NCBI GenBank assembly: GCA_963830935.1
Contig: CAWHOC010000005.1
Span: 1,839 to 65,838, forward strand
Source: an uncultured bacterium
GTDB lineage: Bacteria; Patescibacteriota; Minisyncoccia; UBA6257; 2-01-FULL-56-20
Direction of reading: 5' to 3'
DNA: 64,000 nucleotides
Below are positions 4,578 through 38,994 of this stretch, one piece after another. The stretch's first letter is position 1. Each line of letters starts with the position of its first letter. The notes below the pieces were generated by a model that was not told where the DNA came from, made no database searches, and was given only the letters and a program-made list of their open reading frames with translations. Made by a program: the position numbers and the translations under genes.

Positions 4578-5291
4578 TTATTTTAATACGGATTGGTAAT
4601 TCTTGAGCAGAAAGATAGTCTCCTCACGCAGATGGTTTTTAACCCACGCTTTTGCTTTTTCATCCGGCAGAAGCTCGGCAAGACCACGCAGTATCTCATT
4701 GTCTTTCACTGTCTCAATAACCGGGATGCAGTCGGCGATGTGCTCTTTGATGGTCTTGCCAGTCCTTGCTTTCAATACTTCAACATTGATATCCCAGTTG
4801 TTTTTGGCAAAAAACCAAACATCGTAAATATCACGCATGGCAAGCGTTCGACGGTCAGTCAAGGCGGCAAGCTTGCTAGCGAAGAGGTAGTCTTTTTTGC
4901 CAGCCAACATGGAAATACCGAGATATTCTTTGAGCTCGTAATGTGCCTTGGCATCGGGCATGAGGATCCTCACGTTTATTTCAATCTTGACGTTGTGATC
5001 GGTATCGCCGTAGGAGAGCAGAAAGAATATCGTATTTCGTTTGATGTATTGGTCTTTCACTTCACCGTACGGCTTGAGCATAACGCCAACTTTTTCATAC
5101 ACTGTCTGCTGTGTAGCTTCATCGTTTGTAAACAAATCGAAATCAAGATCCACAGAGAATCCGGAAAGGCCGTAGAAAAAGTAAGCACAGGTGCCGCCTT
5201 TGAAACCGATAAGAGACGAGATGGTCGTGTCGGAGTAGATGTCCCGTAAAATCCTCCCCATGATAAGCTGATGTTTTTCTTTATTGAGCAT
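4578..5291 (-). CDS. AbiEii/AbiGii-family nucleotidyltransferase toxin (type IV TA)
   Basis: FKGGT and FSVDLDFD motifs typical of the DUF1814/AbiEii family. AT-rich relative to flanks. Overlaps the upstream antitoxin gene by 11 nt. Confidence 0.8.
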   Translation of the reverse strand: MLNKEKHQLIMGRILRDIYSDTTISSLIGFKGGTCAYFFYGLSGFSVDLDFDLFTNDEATQQTVYEKVGVMLKPYGEVKDQYIKRNTIFFLLSYGDTDHNVKIEINVRILMPDAKAHYELKEYLGISMLAGKKDYLFASKLAALTDRRTLAMRDIYDVWFFAKNNWDINVEVLKARTGKTIKEHIADCIPVIETVKDNEILRGLAELLPDEKAKAWVKNHLREETIFLLKNYQSVLK

Positions 5292-5901
5292 ATTTTTGAT
5301 AGTTCTTTAATCGTTTAATCAGTTGTTTGTTTTCGTAAATTTTTACCAGCTCGAAGCAGGACTCCCAATTAATCGATCGGAGATTGTCGAAGTAGAATTT
5401 CGGAGACAGATAAATGGTATCGAGGAATGCTCGCTCCGGCGTGGCGATACTGTAGCCCTTTTCTTTTTTAATGCCAATGCCGCTGTATAAAATACTGTCC
5501 TTCAATTTGCGAAAGACGATCGTGTGTCCGTCGATCTTTTTGGTCATCGGATAGGGACCGGCCACAAAGACTGCTTCTTGATGCTGGAAGATGATCCCGG
5601 CTTCACGGAGTACGGTTTCAAAACTTATGTAGGAGGGAGAGTAGATGCTTCCGGCCAACTCTTTCAAATCATATTCTTTGTTTTTTGCAAAAATACCACG
5701 AGAGATACGGATCAGCGATCCCTGTTTTGCATAGTACTTAATCTTGGCTAGCAAGTTTGCCGTATCGGTTTCCTCCCAAATCAAAGCTATATCCTTGATA
5801 GTTAGGATAGTTTTGGGTGAAGCGTATAACTTGGCAATTAGGTTATCTGTGGACATATAATCAGTTTGTTTGATGGAATGGATATATTCCTTACTTTCCA
5901 T
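5281..5901 (-). CDS. AbiEi-family antitoxin / transcriptional regulator
   Basis: The segment YAKQGSLIRISRGIFA and the C-terminal AbiEi_4-like region resemble AbiEi. Likely start is MESKEYIH at 5901 (the ORF is open to 5961). Paired with AbiEii. Confidence 0.7.
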   Translation of the reverse strand: MESKEYIHSIKQTDYMSTDNLIAKLYASPKTILTIKDIALIWEETDTANLLAKIKYYAKQGSLIRISRGIFAKNKEYDLKELAGSIYSPSYISFETVLREAGIIFQHQEAVFVAGPYPMTKKIDGHTIVFRKLKDSILYSGIGIKKEKGYSIATPERAFLDTIYLSPKFYFDNLRSINWESCFELVKIYENKQLIKRLKNYQKYAQ

Positions 5902-15850: not shown

Positions 15851-17566
15851 CTATGCCTCTTCCGTTTCTCTAATGATCTCCTCTATAGAAACCACTCCCT
15901 TCAGCGCTTTCACGATACCGTCCTGGCGAAGCGTGATCATCCCCTGCTTTTTGGCCAGTTCCGTGATCTTCTGCGTGGTAACGCCGGTGGTCATCACTTC
16001 CTCGAGCTCCTTGGTGATCGAGCAGCGCTTCATAAATGCCGGTTCGTCCGAGATGCCGCGGCCCTTGCAGGTGGCGCATCCTTTCGCATGATAGATCTGG
16101 TACGGCGGCGGAATTGCGACGATCACCGCGGTCGGCAGGCCTTCGAGCGCCGTCTTGATGGTCTTCTGCACTTCGGGAACGGCTTCTTCGGGCTTTTTGC
16201 AGTCCGGGCAAGAATGCCCACAAGGCGCTGGGCGATGATCAGATTGAGTGACACGGCAAAAGAAACGGCTCCACTTTGAGGTCGATGAGGCGCGGGATGA
16301 CGCCGGCGCGTTGTTCGTGTGCAATGTGGAAAGCACGACGTGCCCCGTGAGCGCCGCCTGCACGGCAAGCCCGGCGGTCTCGTCGTCGCGGATCTCGCCG
16401 ACCATGATGATGTCCGGGTCCTGCCGCAAGATCTGCCGCAATCCCGACGCGAAGTCGTATCCGATCTCCGGCCGCACCTGCGACTGGTTGATGCCCGCCA
16501 CAAAATATTCCACCGGATCTTCGAGCGAAACGATGTTCACGTCTTCGGTGTTAAGGTTTGCAAAAATGCGTAGAGCGTCGTCGTCTTTCCGGAACCGGTC
16601 GGGCCGGTGATGAGCACCATGCCGAACGGCTTGTCAAGTCCTTCCTTGATGGTCTCGCGGGTTGGGATCAAGCGGTCAAGATTCTCAAAACTCTTGAGTC
16701 CGGTCGTGGGATCGAGCACGCGGATCACGATCTTTTCGCCGAGCGGCGTCGGGAACGTGGCGACGCGGAAGTCGATGTCGCGGTCGAACAGCTTCGCGCG
16801 GAAACGGCCGTCCTGCGGCACGCGTGTTCTCGTCGATCTTCAGATTGGAAATGACCTTGATGCGGGACGTGATCGGCTGGGCAAGCTCCTCCGGCATCGA
16901 CGCGACCTCGTGGAGATCGCCGTCGAGGCGCAAACGGATGCGCAACGATTTCTGCTGCGGCTCGATATGCACGTCCGACGCTTTGTTCAGCACCGCTTCC
17001 TTGAACGTGTCGGCGACGATCTTGATGATCGGCGCGTCCGCGCTGTCGCCGCCCTCAAGCTCGATCACCTGCTGGCCGCCCGATCCCTCTTTGACATTCA
17101 GCGATCGCACCGCCGACTCGATCTCCGCGCGATACGGGGAATATTTTTTGAGCGCCGCCTGCAGGTCGTCGTACGAAATGAGATAGACGCCAAGATTGAT
17201 ATGATTCTGCCGCGCGATGAACTTCATCGCGTCCTGCGCCTTCGAGTCGTCGGGGTGCAGCATGCCGATGACGAGCAGCCCGTCCTGCATGCTGATCGGG
17301 ACTGGTATGATAGGTGCGCGCGGTCTCTTCGGGCACGATGCCCATCAGCTTCGCGTCGAGGGCGTCGGGTCTATTTTTTTATACGGAACTTTGAGCAGCT
17401 CGCTCTTGAGCGCCGCCATCTGTTCGTCGGGAACGATCCGCTCGCGCCCGATGATGTCCTCCGGTGATTCGCCGCTCACGATCGCATCACGCTTGAGTCG
17501 CGTCGCGACGATCTCCGTGATCAATCCCCGGCTCTGCAGTTGTTGGAGAAGCTCGTCGTTCGTCAT
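15851..17566 (-). pseudogene. pilB: type IV pilus assembly ATPase PilB (GspE family), broken by about 7 frame shifts
   Basis: Fragments 17345..17566 (N-terminus), 16685..17290, 16537..16821 (Walker [11 protein letters not shown]) and 15851..16540 ([18 protein letters not shown]...CATCKGRG). Within 16200-16330 the sense sequence runs through all three frames: LHTNNA / [16 protein letters not shown] / [16 protein letters not shown] / CPDCKK. Confidence 0.85.
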
Positions 17567-17572
17567 ATCTAT

Positions 17573-17581
17573 ATTCTACCA
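17573..17581 (-). promoter_or_regulatory. extended -10 (TGgTAGAAT) 6 nt upstream of the pilB ATG
   Basis: The minus strand reads GTGGTAGAATATAGATATG. No Shine-Dalgarno between the box and the ATG. Confidence 0.45.
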
Positions 17582-17613
17582 CGCCGAATGAAAATATTCC
17601 AAAAGATACATAC

Positions 17614-17717
17614 ACAAGAAATACACGCACAGAAGGATTCCGGAGGCGCGAAGGCGCCGAGGCTTAGCGCGTTTTCAGCAGAAAACGACGCGGCCCTTCT
17701 GTGCGTGTATTTCTTGT
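17614..17717. other. long hairpin H1: 23-bp perfect arms around a 58-nt GC-rich two-hairpin module (same module as in H6)
   Basis: Arms ACAAGAAATACACGCACAGAAGG and CCTTCTGTGCGTGTATTTCTTGT. The interior holds GGAGGCGCGAAGGCGCCGAG and GCGCGTTTTCAGCAGAAAACGACGC. Confidence 0.7.
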
Positions 17718-17723
17718 ATTTGG

Positions 17724-18022
17724 TTAGGGGGCGATGAAGGGATTTGGACGTCCCACCGGTGCGGGGCCCGGGGGTCGGCAGCGGCAACGGTGGAGGTAAG
17801 CGTCAGGAATGCGGTGCTCTGCGTCACGGTGTCCGGCTGGACCGCGTTTTGGGCGATCGGAGCGATCATCCCCAGGTTGCCGCTCGCGGGAATAACAACG
17901 AGCTGTGGCTGGGCAAAGAATATATAGTAGACGGCGGCGGCGGCGATGGCCAAAAATACCACCCATCCTATGATGCCAAGCAGGTTCGTCTTTTTTTCTC
18001 CTTCGTCAACAATGATCGCCAT
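17724..18022 (-). CDS. small membrane-anchored pilus-operon protein with a C-terminal GRPNPF tail; frame broken near 17775
   Basis: N-terminal TM LLGIIGWVVFLAIAAAAVYYIFF in ORF 17675..18022. The plausible end PPGPAPVGRPNPFIAP is in ORF 17724..17966. The shift falls in a CCCCCGGGCCCC run. Confidence 0.45.
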
Positions 18023-20369: not shown

Positions 20370-21056
20370 ATGAAATTAAACTTCTTCGGAGACATTTTCT
20401 TTCCGGCGGCGTGCGTGGGGTGCGGGGATTCATTGCCAAGCGGCGTCATATGCGACGCGTGCCTGCAAGGCGTCGATCGGTTCGATACGCTTTTTTGCGG
20501 AACCTGCGCGGCGCGGCTTCCGGAGCGGAAAAAAATATGCCATAAGGACGCGCCGTACCTCCTCGGCGCCGCCGGCGCGTACGACGACGAGCCGCTGCGC
20601 GCGCTCATTCATGCCCTCAAGTTCCAGGGAATGACGGGCGCGGCGGAACCACTCGCCATGATCCTTGCGCACTATATCAAGCGGCTCGATCTTGATCTCG
20701 CCGAATTTGTCGTGACGCCCATCCCGCTTTCCACGCAGCGCGCGCGGGCGCGCGGGTTCAACCAGTCCGCGCTCATCGCGAAGCCCTTCGCCCGCGCGAT
20801 CGGCCTTCCCTTCGAAGAACATCTGCTCGCGCGCATCCTTCATCGCAAACCGCAAAGCGACACGGAGGATATTTTCGAGCGCAGGGAGAACATCAAAGGA
20901 TGCTTCGCGCCCGCGCCCGGCGCAGATGTGCGCGGCAAAAAAATAATTCTCGTTGACGACGTGACCACATCCGGCACGACCTTCGCAGAAGCGGCACGCG
21001 TCGCGAGGGACGCCGGCGCTAAAAAAGTATTCGCTCTCGCGTGCGCGAAGGCATAA
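20370..21056 (+). CDS. comF: ComF-family phosphoribosyltransferase-like competence protein
   Basis: N-terminal CxxC...C...C zinc cluster and C-terminal PRT motif ILVDDVTTSGTT. Confidence 0.85.
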   Translation: MKLNFFGDIFFPAACVGCGDSLPSGVICDACLQGVDRFDTLFCGTCAARLPERKKICHKDAPYLLGAAGAYDDEPLRALIHALKFQGMTGAAEPLAMILAHYIKRLDLDLAEFVVTPIPLSTQRARARGFNQSALIAKPFARAIGLPFEEHLLARILHRKPQSDTEDIFERRENIKGCFAPAPGADVRGKKIILVDDVTTSGTTFAEAARVARDAGAKKVFALACAKA

Positions 21057-21147
21057 AAAAGAGGGATAGCCATCTCGCTCCAGCGTAGCGACCAACGGAA
21101 GTCCCGTGGGAGAACGCCCACTCGCTCAATGACTATCCCTCTTTTTT
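21055..21147. terminator. bidirectional terminator-like hairpin H9 with a 63-nt GC-rich interior
   Basis: AAAAAAGAGGGATAG ... CTATCCCTCTTTTTT, located exactly between convergent stop codons at 21056 and 21156. Confidence 0.6.
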
Positions 21148-21155
21148 ACGATTCC

Positions 21156-26184: not shown

Positions 26185-26261
26185 CCCGCTCCACGCAGGA
26201 AAAACCCTTCGCCGAACGGTCATCTGCCTGGAGGCGAAGGGTTTTTCCTGCGTGGAGCGGG
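26185..26261. other. hairpin H2: 29-bp perfect arms, 19-nt loop GAACGGTCATCTGCCTGGA
   Basis: CCCGCTCCACGCAGGAAAAACCCTTCGCC pairs with GGCGAAGGGTTTTTCCTGCGTGGAGCGGG. The core matches H3 at 29 of 31 nt. Confidence 0.75.
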
Positions 26262-26393
26262 TAAGGGGAGTCGGACCCCTGTCGTCTGATTGGCAACCAG
26301 ATGTAATACCGTTATACGATACCCGCTTTACGGATTCATTATATAGAGCTTCGCAAAAAAATCAACGCCGCCGGACAAAAGAACTTGTCGCGA

Positions 26394-27472: not shown

Positions 27473-27537
27473 AAAGAAAAATCATCGTATTCGCCGAATG
27501 GTCATCTGCCCGGAGGCGAATACGATGATTTTTCTTT
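27473..27537. other. hairpin H3: 23-bp perfect arms, 19-nt loop GAATGGTCATCTGCCCGGA
   Basis: AAAGAAAAATCATCGTATTCGCC pairs with GGCGAATACGATGATTTTTCTTT. Same loop module as H2. Confidence 0.75.
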
Positions 27538-36795: not shown

Positions 36796-36897
36796 ATGGA
36801 GAATATTCTTCCTCCGAACTTCCGCCCTTGCAAGGCGGGTTGCCCGATCGCCTGCGCGGGTCATGGACCAACGTCCCTTGAACCGCGCCCTGACTTG

Positions 36898-36969
36898 TGC
36901 CCCCGCGAAGAATCGAACTTCGATTACAAGATCCGCAATCTTGCGTCCTATCCGTTGAACGACGAGGGC
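36898..36969 (-). tRNA. tRNA-Arg (anticodon GCG)
   Basis: Manual cloverleaf: acceptor GCCCTCG/CGGGGGC (one G-U), D-arm GTTC-AACGGATA-GGAC, anticodon arm CAAGA-TTGCGGA-TCTTG, T-arm CGAAG-TTCGATT-CTTCG, discriminator A. No encoded CCA. Confidence 0.85.
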
Positions 36970-36975
36970 AAACGC

Positions 36976-37042
36976 AACCGGATGTCCTTTTGAGACGGAA
37001 ATGCCACGTTGAAACGTGACCGTCTCAAAAGGACATCTGGTT
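36976..37042. other. hairpin H4: 23-bp stem with a nested CACGTT-gaa-ACGTG hairpin
   Basis: AACCGGATGTCCTTTTGAGACGG pairs with CCGTCTCAAAAGGACATCTGGTT. Lies 7 nt from the tRNA 5' end. Confidence 0.65.
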
Positions 37043-37078
37043 GTTTATTGTTGATAATAAAAGAACAAGAGAAGGATA

Positions 37079-38574: not shown

Positions 38575-38737
38575 GATGATGATAATTAGTTTATTTCGCG
38601 ACCTTTTGTGCTTTTAGCTCCCCTTTAGTATAGCAAAATCAGGGTTTTCTTGCACAAGGGGCGTCAAGCGGGTTATTAAATAATGATTAAAAGGAATTTG
38701 ACGCCTATATGAGATTTGCTATCCTTTTATTAAGATA

Positions 38738-38847
38738 GGTTTCCTGATTTTTCTCTTGATGGCAGAAAGGCGACACTGCGGGCGCCGGGGAGATCCCGGT
38801 GATCGATGAGGGAACTGCCGCCCCTCCAAGAGAAAAATGAGGAAGCC
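38738..38847. other. hairpin H5: 21-bp AT-rich stem around a 68-nt GC-rich interior
   Basis: GGTTTCCTGATTTTTCTCTTG pairs with CAAGAGAAAAATGAGGAAGCC (one mismatch, one G-U). The interior holds nested GGCAG...CTGCC and CCGGG-gagat-CCCGG. Confidence 0.6.
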
Positions 38848-38994
38848 TATTTTATTTCTCGATATTGCCCCCTCAGCTTCTTTTCTGGACGATAATAGCA
38901 ATTAAAAACGCTCTTGGCGCTCCCGTGAGGATCATAGACCACGATCAGCGCCTCATGCTCCTTCCGCGCCCACAATCGCTTATATTTACTGATT

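Follow-up and report, generated by a model that had tools for sequence, protein, structure and literature searches.

An uncatalogued self-folding cassette at the centre of gene-end palindromes in Patescibacteria

Patescibacteria account for a large share of bacterial diversity, and to our knowledge their RNA biology is almost unexplored, as is the way transcripts end in their very compact genomes. The whole stretch of 64,000 nucleotides analyzed here (hereafter the window) contains two GC-rich hairpins, H1 and H6, which a sequence-only reading had singled out for a common module enclosed in long and otherwise unrelated stems. What is this module, and why is it found inside these stems? Our results indicate that H1 and H6 are copies of an uncatalogued, self-folding cassette of ~70 nt that is specific to Patescibacteria. 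Several points go beyond the initial reading: the enclosing stems are probably ordinary terminators of the lineage, the cassette represents one of several tip families, it is dispersed at high copy number, and it also occurs in a tRNA-like RNA.

These results define a phylum-wide structured element with strong covariation that is absent from Rfam. Its architecture is unusual, with putative terminators built as long perfect palindromes that carry exchangeable conserved tip cassettes of at least five families. Duplicated tRNA ends and a tRNA-like small RNA are also linked to the module. In practical terms, the covariance model can be used for annotation and the cassette can serve as a marker for CPR contigs.

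The hairpins of the window and their family

The arms of both hairpins could be located (Table 1), and H1 and H6 are real in the sense originally proposed: their RNA folding energies (respectively, −66 and −100 kcal/mol) correspond to z-scores of about −11 to −12 relative to shuffled sequences. In the left arm of H1, the perfectly paired stretch covers positions 17614–17636. The outer 33 nt of the H6 right arm consist of the last 10 codons and the stop codon of pnp, and the left arm is their inverted copy. H1 and H6 contain a common 20-mer, GGAGGCRCGAAGGYGCCGAG, on the plus strand at the two P2 cores listed in Table 1. As had been observed, 18 of its 20 positions are identical, and these two sites are the only matches in the window when three mismatches are allowed (0.05 expected by chance). 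The two differences (G..C versus A..T) are the partners of a single pair of helix P2b, whose stem reads GGCRC/GYGCC. In the first copy, GGA/GAG forms a tandem G.A internal loop, the stem is GGCGC/GCGCC, and the loop is GAAG (17650–17653). The second copy includes a flanking tandem GA (TC-GA-GGGG ... TCCT-GA-GA), and its P1 helix contains G.U pairs on the plus strand. The second hairpin that had been described, with an outer helix, a bulged A or AA, a variable inner helix and a (T)CAGCAG loop, is present in both copies as P3. Reading the arms of H1 and H6 side by side, we found no common sequence outside the conserved inner end of P1, in agreement with the initial description.

Table 1. Positions of the features of the window, and distribution of tip types among the orthologous pnp 3' ends
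Feature	Position	Strand	Description
H1 left arm	17609–17636		Local sequence, not family-conserved; inverted repeat of 28 nt, 93% complementary
H1 right arm	17695–17722		Ends 2 nt short of the stop codon (17724–17726) of the upstream minus-strand ORF
Cassette copy 1 (family-1 core: P1 closing helix, P2, P3)	17629–17702	+	Covariance-model match, 70.9 bits, E = 1e-18
Copy 1, P2 hairpin core	17642–17661	+	GGAGGCGCGAAGGCGCCGAG
Copy 1, P3 hairpin	17667–17691	+	GCG-CGTTTT-(CAGCAG)-AAAACG-A-CGC, with the bulged A at 17688; read from sequence
H6 left arm	59323–59368		Outer part (59323–59341) is an inverted copy of the pnp coding end
H6 right arm	59442–59491		Holds the last 10 pnp codons and the TAA stop (59459–59461); pnp on the minus strand
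Cassette copy 2 (family-1 core)	59367–59443	+	Covariance-model match, 78.3 bits, E = 9e-21
Copy 2, P2 hairpin core	59381–59400	+	GGAGGCACGAAGGTGCCGAG; A-U at the covarying pair
Copy 2, P3 hairpin	59407–59433	+	GGCG-GCCGG-(TCAGCAG)-GCCGG-AA-CGCC
Promoter-like site of pilB	17573–17602	−	TTGGAA-18-TAGAAT with TG, directly after H1
Extended −10 of the gene after H6 (ATG 59294–59292)	59301–59309	−	TGTTAAAAT; read from sequence
Family 2 hairpin	26185–26261		
Family 2 hairpin	27473–27537		
Family 3 hairpin	21054–21148		
Sixth-family hairpin	36981–37037		Recurs in L037, L126, L170
pnp site, family 1			L122, L134, L146
pnp site, family 2			Tip TCC..GATGA..GTTC; L119, L123, L127, L130
pnp site, family 3			Either orientation and a short form; L120, L126, L131, L145, L155
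pnp site, family 4			TGCTGTG-N4-CACAAC
pnp site, plain small loops			L121, L124, L132, L142, L143, L148, L162
pnp site, deletion remnant			L118

An exact scan for GGAGGCNCGAAGGNGCCGAG across one genome per species matched at least 117 stretches. About half of the matches listed represent chance or coding occurrences in GC-rich phyla. The others were all found in MAGs labelled Patescibacteria, Paceibacterota, Parcubacteria, Kaiserbacteria, Nomurabacteria, Minisyncoccia, Taylorbacteria or Saccharibacteria. The architecture of H1 and H6 was recovered in 47 of the listed matches, which present a conserved core of 55–75 nt and near-perfect arms of 13–41 bp that differ at every site and are mutually unrelated. 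A covariance model was built from an alignment of 41 cores, with helices annotated P1, P2a, P2b, P3a and P3b. In this alignment, 94.4% of the cells are paired and the covariation score is 0.557 (relative to 0.165 for shuffles and ~0.1 for slid partners). Scanning with such a model had been recommended from the outset. In the window the model returned exactly two copies (78.3 and 70.9 bits), the next best hit scoring 10.9 bits, and DNA fetched from ~40 Patescibacteria assemblies yielded 79 copies at E < 1e-7. Some of these copies do not contain the exact 20-mer; up to three copies were found per 8 kb, and two lie within 250 nt.

Across the 79 copies, 20 of the 21 pairs vary on both sides, 94.7% of the cells are paired and the covariation score reaches 0.696 (relative to 0.183 for shuffles and ~0.1 for slid partners). 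The suggestion that covariation would reveal a functional RNA or single-stranded DNA structure is therefore supported. The P2b pair that was noticed first is G-C in 41 copies, A-U in 36, G-U in one and C-G in one. All nine pairs of the P3 helix covary across the family. The variants of P2b are all compensated (AGCGC/GCGCT, GCCGC/GCGGC, ATCGC/GCGAT and GGTCAT/ATGACC), and 6-bp versions also occur. The loop of P2 is GAAG, GUAG, GACG or GAAA, and GGA...GAG is found beside P2b in nearly all 79 copies, GGA being replaced by GCA in a few of them. The invariant elements are the C-G pair closing the C-GGA/GAG internal loop (a tandem G.A with one bulged G), the AG dinucleotide that precedes P3, the bulged A and YAGCAG loop of P3 itself, and the GGG/CCC of P1. 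The module is a three-way junction that comprises the closing helix P1, P2 with a GNAG tetraloop, and P3 with a bulged A and a YAGCAG hexaloop.

Both pilB and pnp are frameshifted in the window according to the ORF maps, and the assembly of the window is error-prone, which could invite an explanation by chance similarity or assembly artefact. The census refutes this explanation and leaves it with a negligible probability: the same architecture and the same covariation were observed in ~40 independent assemblies obtained with different technologies, and, as given above, very few occurrences of the 20-mer would be expected in the window by chance.

The motif had not been recognized in the sequence-only reading, and our searches of Rfam and of the literature gave no match to it either. 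Searching the whole window against Rfam 15 at gathering thresholds returned two tRNAs only. When positions 17560–17770 and 59280–59530 were searched on both strands at E ≤ 10, we obtained only noise outside the module. No module match was found with Rfam in 16 related loci, in the tRNA-like version or in the X element, both described below. The only tRNAs identified in the window by ARAGORN and Rfam are tRNA-Gly (26253–26326) and tRNA-Arg (36897–36969), and the module was not called. We found no description of the cassette in a full-text search of the literature. Resemblance to SRP RNA, RNase P, 6S, T-box, hammerhead, twister and mini-ykkC RNAs was rejected since the required core is absent and no model matched. 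Finally, the cassette is absent from 2.9 million viral contigs but for one chance coding match, which rules out a phage origin.

Position at gene ends, exchange between sites and strand polarity

The two copies of the window are located between co-directional minus-strand genes. Each had initially been placed after the stop codon of one cistron and before the next gene. For H1 this placement is correct, the hairpin lying after the stop at 17724 and before pilB, but the pnp stop is found inside the right arm of H6 rather than before H6. We identified pilB by its T2SSE and MshEN domains and pnp by the S1 domain of PNPase; the relatives of PilB present an identity of at most 71%. An alternative genetic code was ruled out as an explanation for the broken genes because pilB contains true frame changes, which suggests assembly errors or pseudogenes instead. 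The ATG of pilB is located at 17566, so close to its promoter-like site that the pilB mRNA is likely leaderless; the ATG that follows the promoter after H6 likewise appears to be leaderless. The arrangement of TGnTAAAAT followed by ATG is also observed after the terminator in pnp orthologues. A simple promoter scan made no call at the extended −10 of the gene that follows H6.

On the minus strand, UUUCGUUUUUGUA follows H6 and CUUUUGG follows H1 (by eye), and the inner stems of both hairpins are followed by U-runs that pair with A-runs. A consensus terminator scan called neither H1 nor H6, because their loops (>8 nt) and stems (>20 bp) exceed the limits of the scan. The arms adjoin or overlap stop codons, at 17724 for H1 and at 59459 for H6. 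In this lineage, the start of a family-1 palindrome is found at or within the stop codon of the gene upstream (fusA, pnp), or beside or inside the 3' end of a tRNA, and the cassette occupies the exact dyad centre of long, almost perfect palindromes. Tipped hairpins have arms that begin at the stop codon or within it; the plain terminators of the pnp site start 9–20 nt past it. In 250 kb that were not selected for family 1, perfect hairpins with tips of at least 15 nt outnumber plain ones by 47 to 17, a count that includes a few inverted repeats inside coding sequence, and the median arm length is 18 for tipped and 13 for plain hairpins.

Because these palindromes follow gene ends and the next promoter lies at once downstream, we consider the long stems to be the ordinary bidirectional intrinsic terminators of the lineage, standing outside the family itself and presumably ending transcription. 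Similarly to known bidirectional intrinsic terminators, they are located after stop codons or tRNA 3' ends and display an A-tract, a GC-rich stem and a T-tract followed by a promoter. Each strand would present a hairpin and then a U-run, and plain versions occur at the same orthologous site. As is required of an intrinsic terminator, H1 and H6 are stable GC-rich hairpins that immediately follow a gene end. They differ from known examples by their almost perfect stems of 20–45 bp, which often reach the coding end, and by a loop that is a conserved three-way junction of 60–75 nt.

We then compared 46 orthologous pnp 3' ends from metagenomes, in which the C-terminus of PNPase is 54–99% identical. 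In all 46, the palindrome of A-tract, stem and T-tract is present, and the promoter and gene that come after it are the same. Even relatives that are 95–99% identical differ in arms and tip, and the tip belongs to family 1, to at least three other recurrent families, or is a plain small loop (Table 1). Tips of other families were also found in the window itself. The module is therefore one of several interchangeable cassettes at the apex of terminators.

Exchange is also apparent from the cores themselves. Over 70 nt (GAGGGGAATCGC...GTCCCCGA), the cores of two loci of one MAG (L115 and L062) and of one locus of another MAG (L067) are 100% identical and their arms are unrelated; the core of L096, from a third MAG, is 98.5% identical to them. 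For 43 of 52 copies, the closest relative was found in another assembly. The arms pair right up to the boundary of the cassette. The copy of L067 is downstream of fusA, and a series of 12 fusA loci was analyzed, the EF-G of the relatives of L067 being 92–96% identical. L172 and L067 possess homologous arms and different cassette subtypes, and each substitution between their arms is mirrored in the opposite arm, including the stop codon (TAG/CTA versus TAA/TTA). In L165 and L169, the distal outer arm is common and corresponds to an inverted copy of the coding end AAAAAGAGATAG, whereas the inner arms and the cassette subtype differ. The fusA site of L170 contains the sixth tip family in place of family 1, and that of L176 only a remnant. 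We searched the 46 pnp loci and the 12 fusA loci for a pre-insertion empty site and found none that is unambiguous, only remnants (L118, L176) and swaps. These results show that the cassette is a separate exchangeable unit and that the arms are local sequences kept perfectly complementary: one arm corresponds to the 3' end or trailer of the gene itself, and the other is an inverted copy of it. Cassettes may enter existing palindromes, or their insertion may generate the inverted copy of the flank. Alternatively, the identical cores may result from ectopic conversion through conserved segments.

Among the terminator copies, the fold of the strand bearing GGAGGC is more stable than that of the complementary strand in 54 of 56 cores (mean difference of 3.7 kcal/mol) and in 46 of 56 whole hairpins. 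The mismatches of P2 and P3 comprise 16 G.U and 2 A.C, 8 of these G.U coming from one related group, and those of the arms 20 G.T and 7 A.C among 1096 pairs. Since orientation based on ORFs is noisy in GC-rich frameshifted DNA, we relied on tRNAs and on the pnp and fusA series. The GGAGGC strand is usually antisense to the terminated gene: this was observed in all 14 copies with a tRNA directly adjoining the arm, which involve at least 10 different tRNA genes, in all five pnp copies, in six fusA variants, and in H1, H6 and L115. A few sense-oriented exceptions were found (e.g., L027 and L103). The mRNA would consequently bear mostly the complement, which does not possess the G.A motifs, and this polarity is no less compatible with a target site or a selfish element than with docking on the mRNA. 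None of the explanations considered below accounts for it in full. Orientation relative to GC skew presents no clear bias (37:24) and both orientations occur within single loci, which speaks against a replication-linked orientation. For the perfect compensation seen in nested palindromes, homogenization at the DNA level could contribute instead of selection on RNA.

Relatives linked to tRNA genes

Several relatives of the module, other than H1 and H6, are linked to tRNA genes. In four loci (L002, L093, L108 and L113), a unit containing the module follows a tRNA and ends in a direct copy of the last 17–20 nt of this tRNA, and the 5' strand of its P1 helix is an inverted copy of the tRNA end. 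Direct repeats of the tRNA 3' end of the same length were found in these four loci and in L079, L085, L015 and L006. The flanking direct repeats expected of site-specific integrative elements are thus present around these relatives. The inserts measure only ~125–250 nt. On the far side of many family-1 hairpins that abut tRNAs, we further identified an element, X, whose core is GGAG-(hairpin with a CAGCAG loop)-UGAG. It is flanked by two copies of tRNA sequence, the T-arm in inverted and the 3' end in direct orientation, and a plain terminator comes next. L085 presents two such tRNA-bracketed units in tandem. The pattern represents either the footprint of site-specific integration into tRNA genes, in the segment from the T-loop to the 3' end, or RNAs that mimic tRNA 3' ends.

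Another version was found in 10 MAGs with Saccharibacteria, Nomurabacteria or unclassified labels, where the P2-P3 module is part of a unit of ~125 nt directly upstream of tRNA-Asn. This unit is on the strand of the tRNA and opens with a copy of the tRNA leader and first bases. A promoter-like TTG...TAAGAT was seen by eye ~40 nt upstream in several loci. The consensus fold obtained with RNAalifold is cloverleaf-like with five helices, a 9-bp acceptor-like helix being stacked on a short hairpin at the position of the T-arm, and several pairs are G.U in most sequences. This tRNA-like context on the tRNA strand, together with the many G.U pairs, shows that the module is an RNA domain there. The tRNA-like RNA is probably matured by tRNA-processing enzymes. 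With its acceptor-like helix on a T-arm-like hairpin, and with its co-oriented repeat of the tRNA-Asn leader and first bases, this version is similar to tRNA-like small RNAs such as mascRNA and the tRNA-like domain of tmRNA. In contrast to those, it presents neither an anticodon loop nor a T-loop and was called neither by ARAGORN nor by Rfam, and the copies of the window are wholly devoid of the tRNA-like chassis.

Explanations for the conserved tip

The best-supported explanation, to which we give about an even chance, is a self-folding and exchangeable RNA cassette: it would cap the bidirectional terminator palindromes and expose a conserved surface for recognition. This reading builds on the family membership, the fold, the position at terminators and the arm-independent exchange established above, and on the module being an RNA in its tRNA-like version. 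P1 would join the ends of the cassette, so that the insert would behave as a compact loop and be tolerated; the terminator hairpin would still form, and termination or protection of the 3' end would be retained. The invariant unpaired nucleotides, which are dispensable for a terminator, would then constitute a docking site for a putative conserved trans factor, such as a protein binding tandem G.A pairs or a complementary RNA. The 5'-GA/5'-GA tandem mismatches of P2 beside a G-C stem resemble kink-turns, K-loops and loop E motifs, which are bound by L7Ae-type and ribosomal proteins. A second GA/GA flanks P1 in one subfamily, and the tip of family 2 is closed by GA/GA. Relative to a kink-turn, the tandem sheared G.A is present, but one unpaired G is found in place of the 3-nt bulge.

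The same cassette could, on the other hand, be a selfish and non-autonomous mobile DNA element without any host RNA function. This is the main rival, which we take seriously but regard as on the unlikely side. A recombinase or transposase acting in trans would recognize the folded single strand, as in integron attC sites or at the ends of IS200/IS605 elements, and would insert the cassette at palindrome centres or gene 3' ends, where it would persist since a compact loop insert is harmless. The copy number, the subtypes across genomes, the nested insertion seen in the second copy of L009 and the tandem tRNA units are what is expected of a mobile element. Many copies are found per genome, identical cores occur in unrelated arms across assemblies with their nearest relative mostly elsewhere, and one orthologous site can hold different families or subtypes. 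The direct repeats around the tRNA-linked units, once in tandem, correspond to the classic footprint of site-specific integration. In addition, the conserved bulged A and the G.A mismatches resemble marks of strand selectivity, and the excess of G.T over A.C also fits a single folded DNA strand. However, no transposase or integrase could be linked to the cassette (the ORFs scanned in the window include no transposase), no clean empty site or target duplication was observed at the protein-gene sites of the pnp and fusA series, the viral contigs contain nothing but a chance match, and orientation is unconstrained by GC skew and mixed in single loci. Ectopic gene conversion via the conserved P1/P2 segments could yield identical cores without transposition. 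Finally, the module is part of a syntenic, putatively promoter-driven and G.U-rich tRNA-like RNA in other CPR lineages, which argues for an RNA with a cellular role.

Relative to known elements, the cassette has traits in common with intrinsic terminators, with dispersed palindromic repeats and with folded sites of the attC type, but it inverts the usual logic: conservation lies in the tip, and the arms are unique. Like REP/BIME/REPIN, BOX and Correia elements, it is intergenic, abundant and hairpin-forming, it is located at gene 3' ends, and it has possibly spread in trans; in those elements, however, the arms are conserved and mobilized and the loop is variable. No RAYT-like gene could be linked to the cassette, and the common terminal inverted repeats or arms of MITE and REP-type elements are lacking, the arms of the 47 copies being unrelated. 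Similarities with integron attC sites include the position at gene 3' ends, imperfect nested hairpins, a conserved structure with few extrahelical or mismatched bases, one strand that folds preferentially, and units that are exchangeable. Unlike attC sites, the cassette is found without R and L boxes, integron integrase or cassette array, and the conserved 20-mer and loops are at the apex rather than at the base of the stem. With regard to IS200/IS605 palindrome-associated elements, two imperfect hairpins are present here, the ORFs scanned in the window include no transposase, the orientation relative to GC skew is 37:24, and single loci contain both orientations.

A further version of mobility, which we judge unlikely, is that the cassette belongs to a new kind of mobile element able to make its own terminator, landing by the 3' end of a transcription unit and copying the flank in inverted form. 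Fold-back or template-switch synthesis, primed where P1 joins the ends of the cassette, would generate the long perfect palindrome. This would explain why the arms are paired to the cassette boundary (T|GAGGGG...CCCCGA|A) and unique at every site, why they repeatedly contain the last codons of the upstream gene, its stop codon or a tRNA 3' end, why tipped arms are longer, and why the side of the cassette on which the original flank lies hardly ever changes. It would likewise explain the direct and inverted copies of tRNA ends around the tRNA-linked relatives.

Two explanations by RNA function remain to be weighed against the recognition cassette. The GGAGGC strand could be transcribed alone from stand-alone small RNA genes, for instance as a short divergent transcript from the symmetric −10 of the downstream gene. 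The long stem would then be its own bidirectional terminator and a substrate of RNase III that releases the capped tip as an abundant small RNA. This strand folds better than its complement and, being antisense to the flanking genes, would need another transcript to be made. Moreover, −10 boxes overlap beside H1 (TATATT, 17570–17575 on the plus strand; TAGAAT, 17578–17573 on the minus strand), TATTTT precedes H6 (59300–59305 on the plus strand), and the module of Saccharibacteria-type genomes would be released from a precursor that resembles a tRNA. We nevertheless consider small RNA genes quite improbable: the plus-strand promoters are weak, without a −35, and were not called by the scan, in tRNA-flanked copies the neighbouring element lies too close to the left arm for a promoter to fit, sense-oriented copies exist (L027, L103), and other tip families occur in both orientations at one site. 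A cis-regulatory aptamer or a self-cleaving ribozyme, acting as a riboswitch or in 3'-end processing within the terminator, appears highly improbable. Aptamers and small ribozymes typically present such a three-way junction, with unpaired nucleotides that do not vary, and terminator-embedded aptamers are known, such as the HMP-PP thiS class. But the copies follow unrelated genes (pnp, fusA, tRNAs and pilus genes) and hence present no gene association, stems of 25–45 bp would not be switched by a ligand, and the cassette lies antisense to the transcript in most cases. Rfam gave no match to a ribozyme or riboswitch at E ≤ 10, and the hammerhead core CUGANGA...GAAA is absent from the consensus.

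Whether as a mobile cassette or as the target of an RNA acting in trans, the element would, if this proves true, represent a new mechanism. In the latter case, a sense RNA such as the tRNA-like version may kiss complementary loops on many mRNA and tRNA 3' ends. The loops possess the corresponding complements, GAAG with CUUC and CAGCAG with CUGCUG.

Other palindromes with recurrent tips and their decay

Two long hairpins of the window carry the same 19-nt tip, GAAYGGTCATCTGCCYGGA (family 2), on unrelated arms. This tip is closed by GCC/GGC with tandem GA, and its family was seen again in several relatives, 3' of pnp and of the next gene (L119, L122, L123, L125, L127, L130 and L148). The last 9 nt of tRNA-Gly (CCCGCTCCA) form part of the right arm of the hairpin at 26185-26261. 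Relatives of the family 3 tip were found in L104, L120, L121, L126, L127, L129 and L145; they run in either direction, and a short form also occurs. The tip AAATGCCACGTTGAAACGTGA has further copies in L037, L126 and L170. No relatives were found for the 68-nt tip.

The L009 copy of family 1, the three-way-junction cassette, contains about 45 extra nucleotides that form a hairpin directly after stem P2b, a nested insertion within the cassette. Truncated cassettes persist at a pnp and at a fusA site. At the pnp site, a short repeat (TCCG/TTCG) is common to both deletion endpoints, which shows that decay of these palindromes proceeds through microhomology deletions.

Coordinates of the features in the window and in related loci (L)
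Feature	Location	Remark
Family 2 hairpin	window 26185-26261	
Family 2 hairpin	window 27473-27537	
Family 3 palindrome	window 21054-21148	tip 21074-21128
Tipped palindrome	window 36975-37043	tip AAATGCCACGTTGAAACGTGA
Tipped palindrome	window 38731-38854	68-nt tip 38759-38826
Family 1 copy with extra hairpin	L009 2182-2293	
Cassette remnant	L118 3165-3210	pnp site
Cassette remnant	L176 2819-2880	fusA site
Element X	L079 about 5190-5360	also L085, L015, L039, L069, L099
Element Y	L006, L020, L036, L097	
Group I intron	L025 5591-5866	Rfam
LOOT RNA	L025 1357-1474	Rfam
LOOT RNA	L038 5828-5951	Rfam
tmRNA	L002 6879-7301	Rfam
Extended -10 sites and gene starts	window 17564-17602, 59292-59309	minus strand
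Inverted repeat in pnp	window 60369-60503	orthologues, for example L118 2121-2255
pilB	window 15851-17566	frame changes
pnp	window 59459-61463	frame changes

Structured elements beside tRNA and tmRNA genes

An inverted copy of the T-arm and a direct copy of the last 17-19 nt of the neighbouring tRNA flank the structured elements X and Y; L085 holds a tandem pair of such units, and similar arrangements occur in L002, L093, L108 and L113. This flanking pattern resembles footprints left by integration, or mimics of the 3' ends of tRNAs. A family-1-like copy also lies about 35 nt from the 5' end of the L002 tmRNA.

The P2-P3 module of family 1 was further found inside an unannotated cloverleaf-like RNA of ~125 nt directly upstream of tRNA-Asn (L025, L026, L030, L034, L038, L045, L060, L098, L110 and L116). 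This RNA is rich in G.U pairs and gave no Rfam match, and its 9-bp acceptor-like helix copies the leader and 5' end of tRNA-Asn. The adjoining tRNA-Asn gene is interrupted after the anticodon region in L025 and L045.

Promoters and neighbouring genes

Genes 3' of the terminators, at the window sites and in the pnp orthologues (L118-L149), start 6-7 nt past an extended -10 box (TGnTAAAAT or TAGAAT), a spacing which implies that their mRNAs would be leaderless. The symmetry of these -10 regions is almost complete, and transcription could start from them either way.

The pnp coding region itself holds an inverted repeat with arms of 14-19 nt about 100 nt apart. It is conserved in place in 14 pnp orthologues and may reflect mRNA structure or protein-level symmetry. 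Both pnp and pilB are broken by frame changes, and a 229-aa PilB fragment has its own protein entry in public records (P0001); the frame changes are therefore either indel errors of the source assembly or marks of pseudogenes. The fusA gene of L067 is truncated too.
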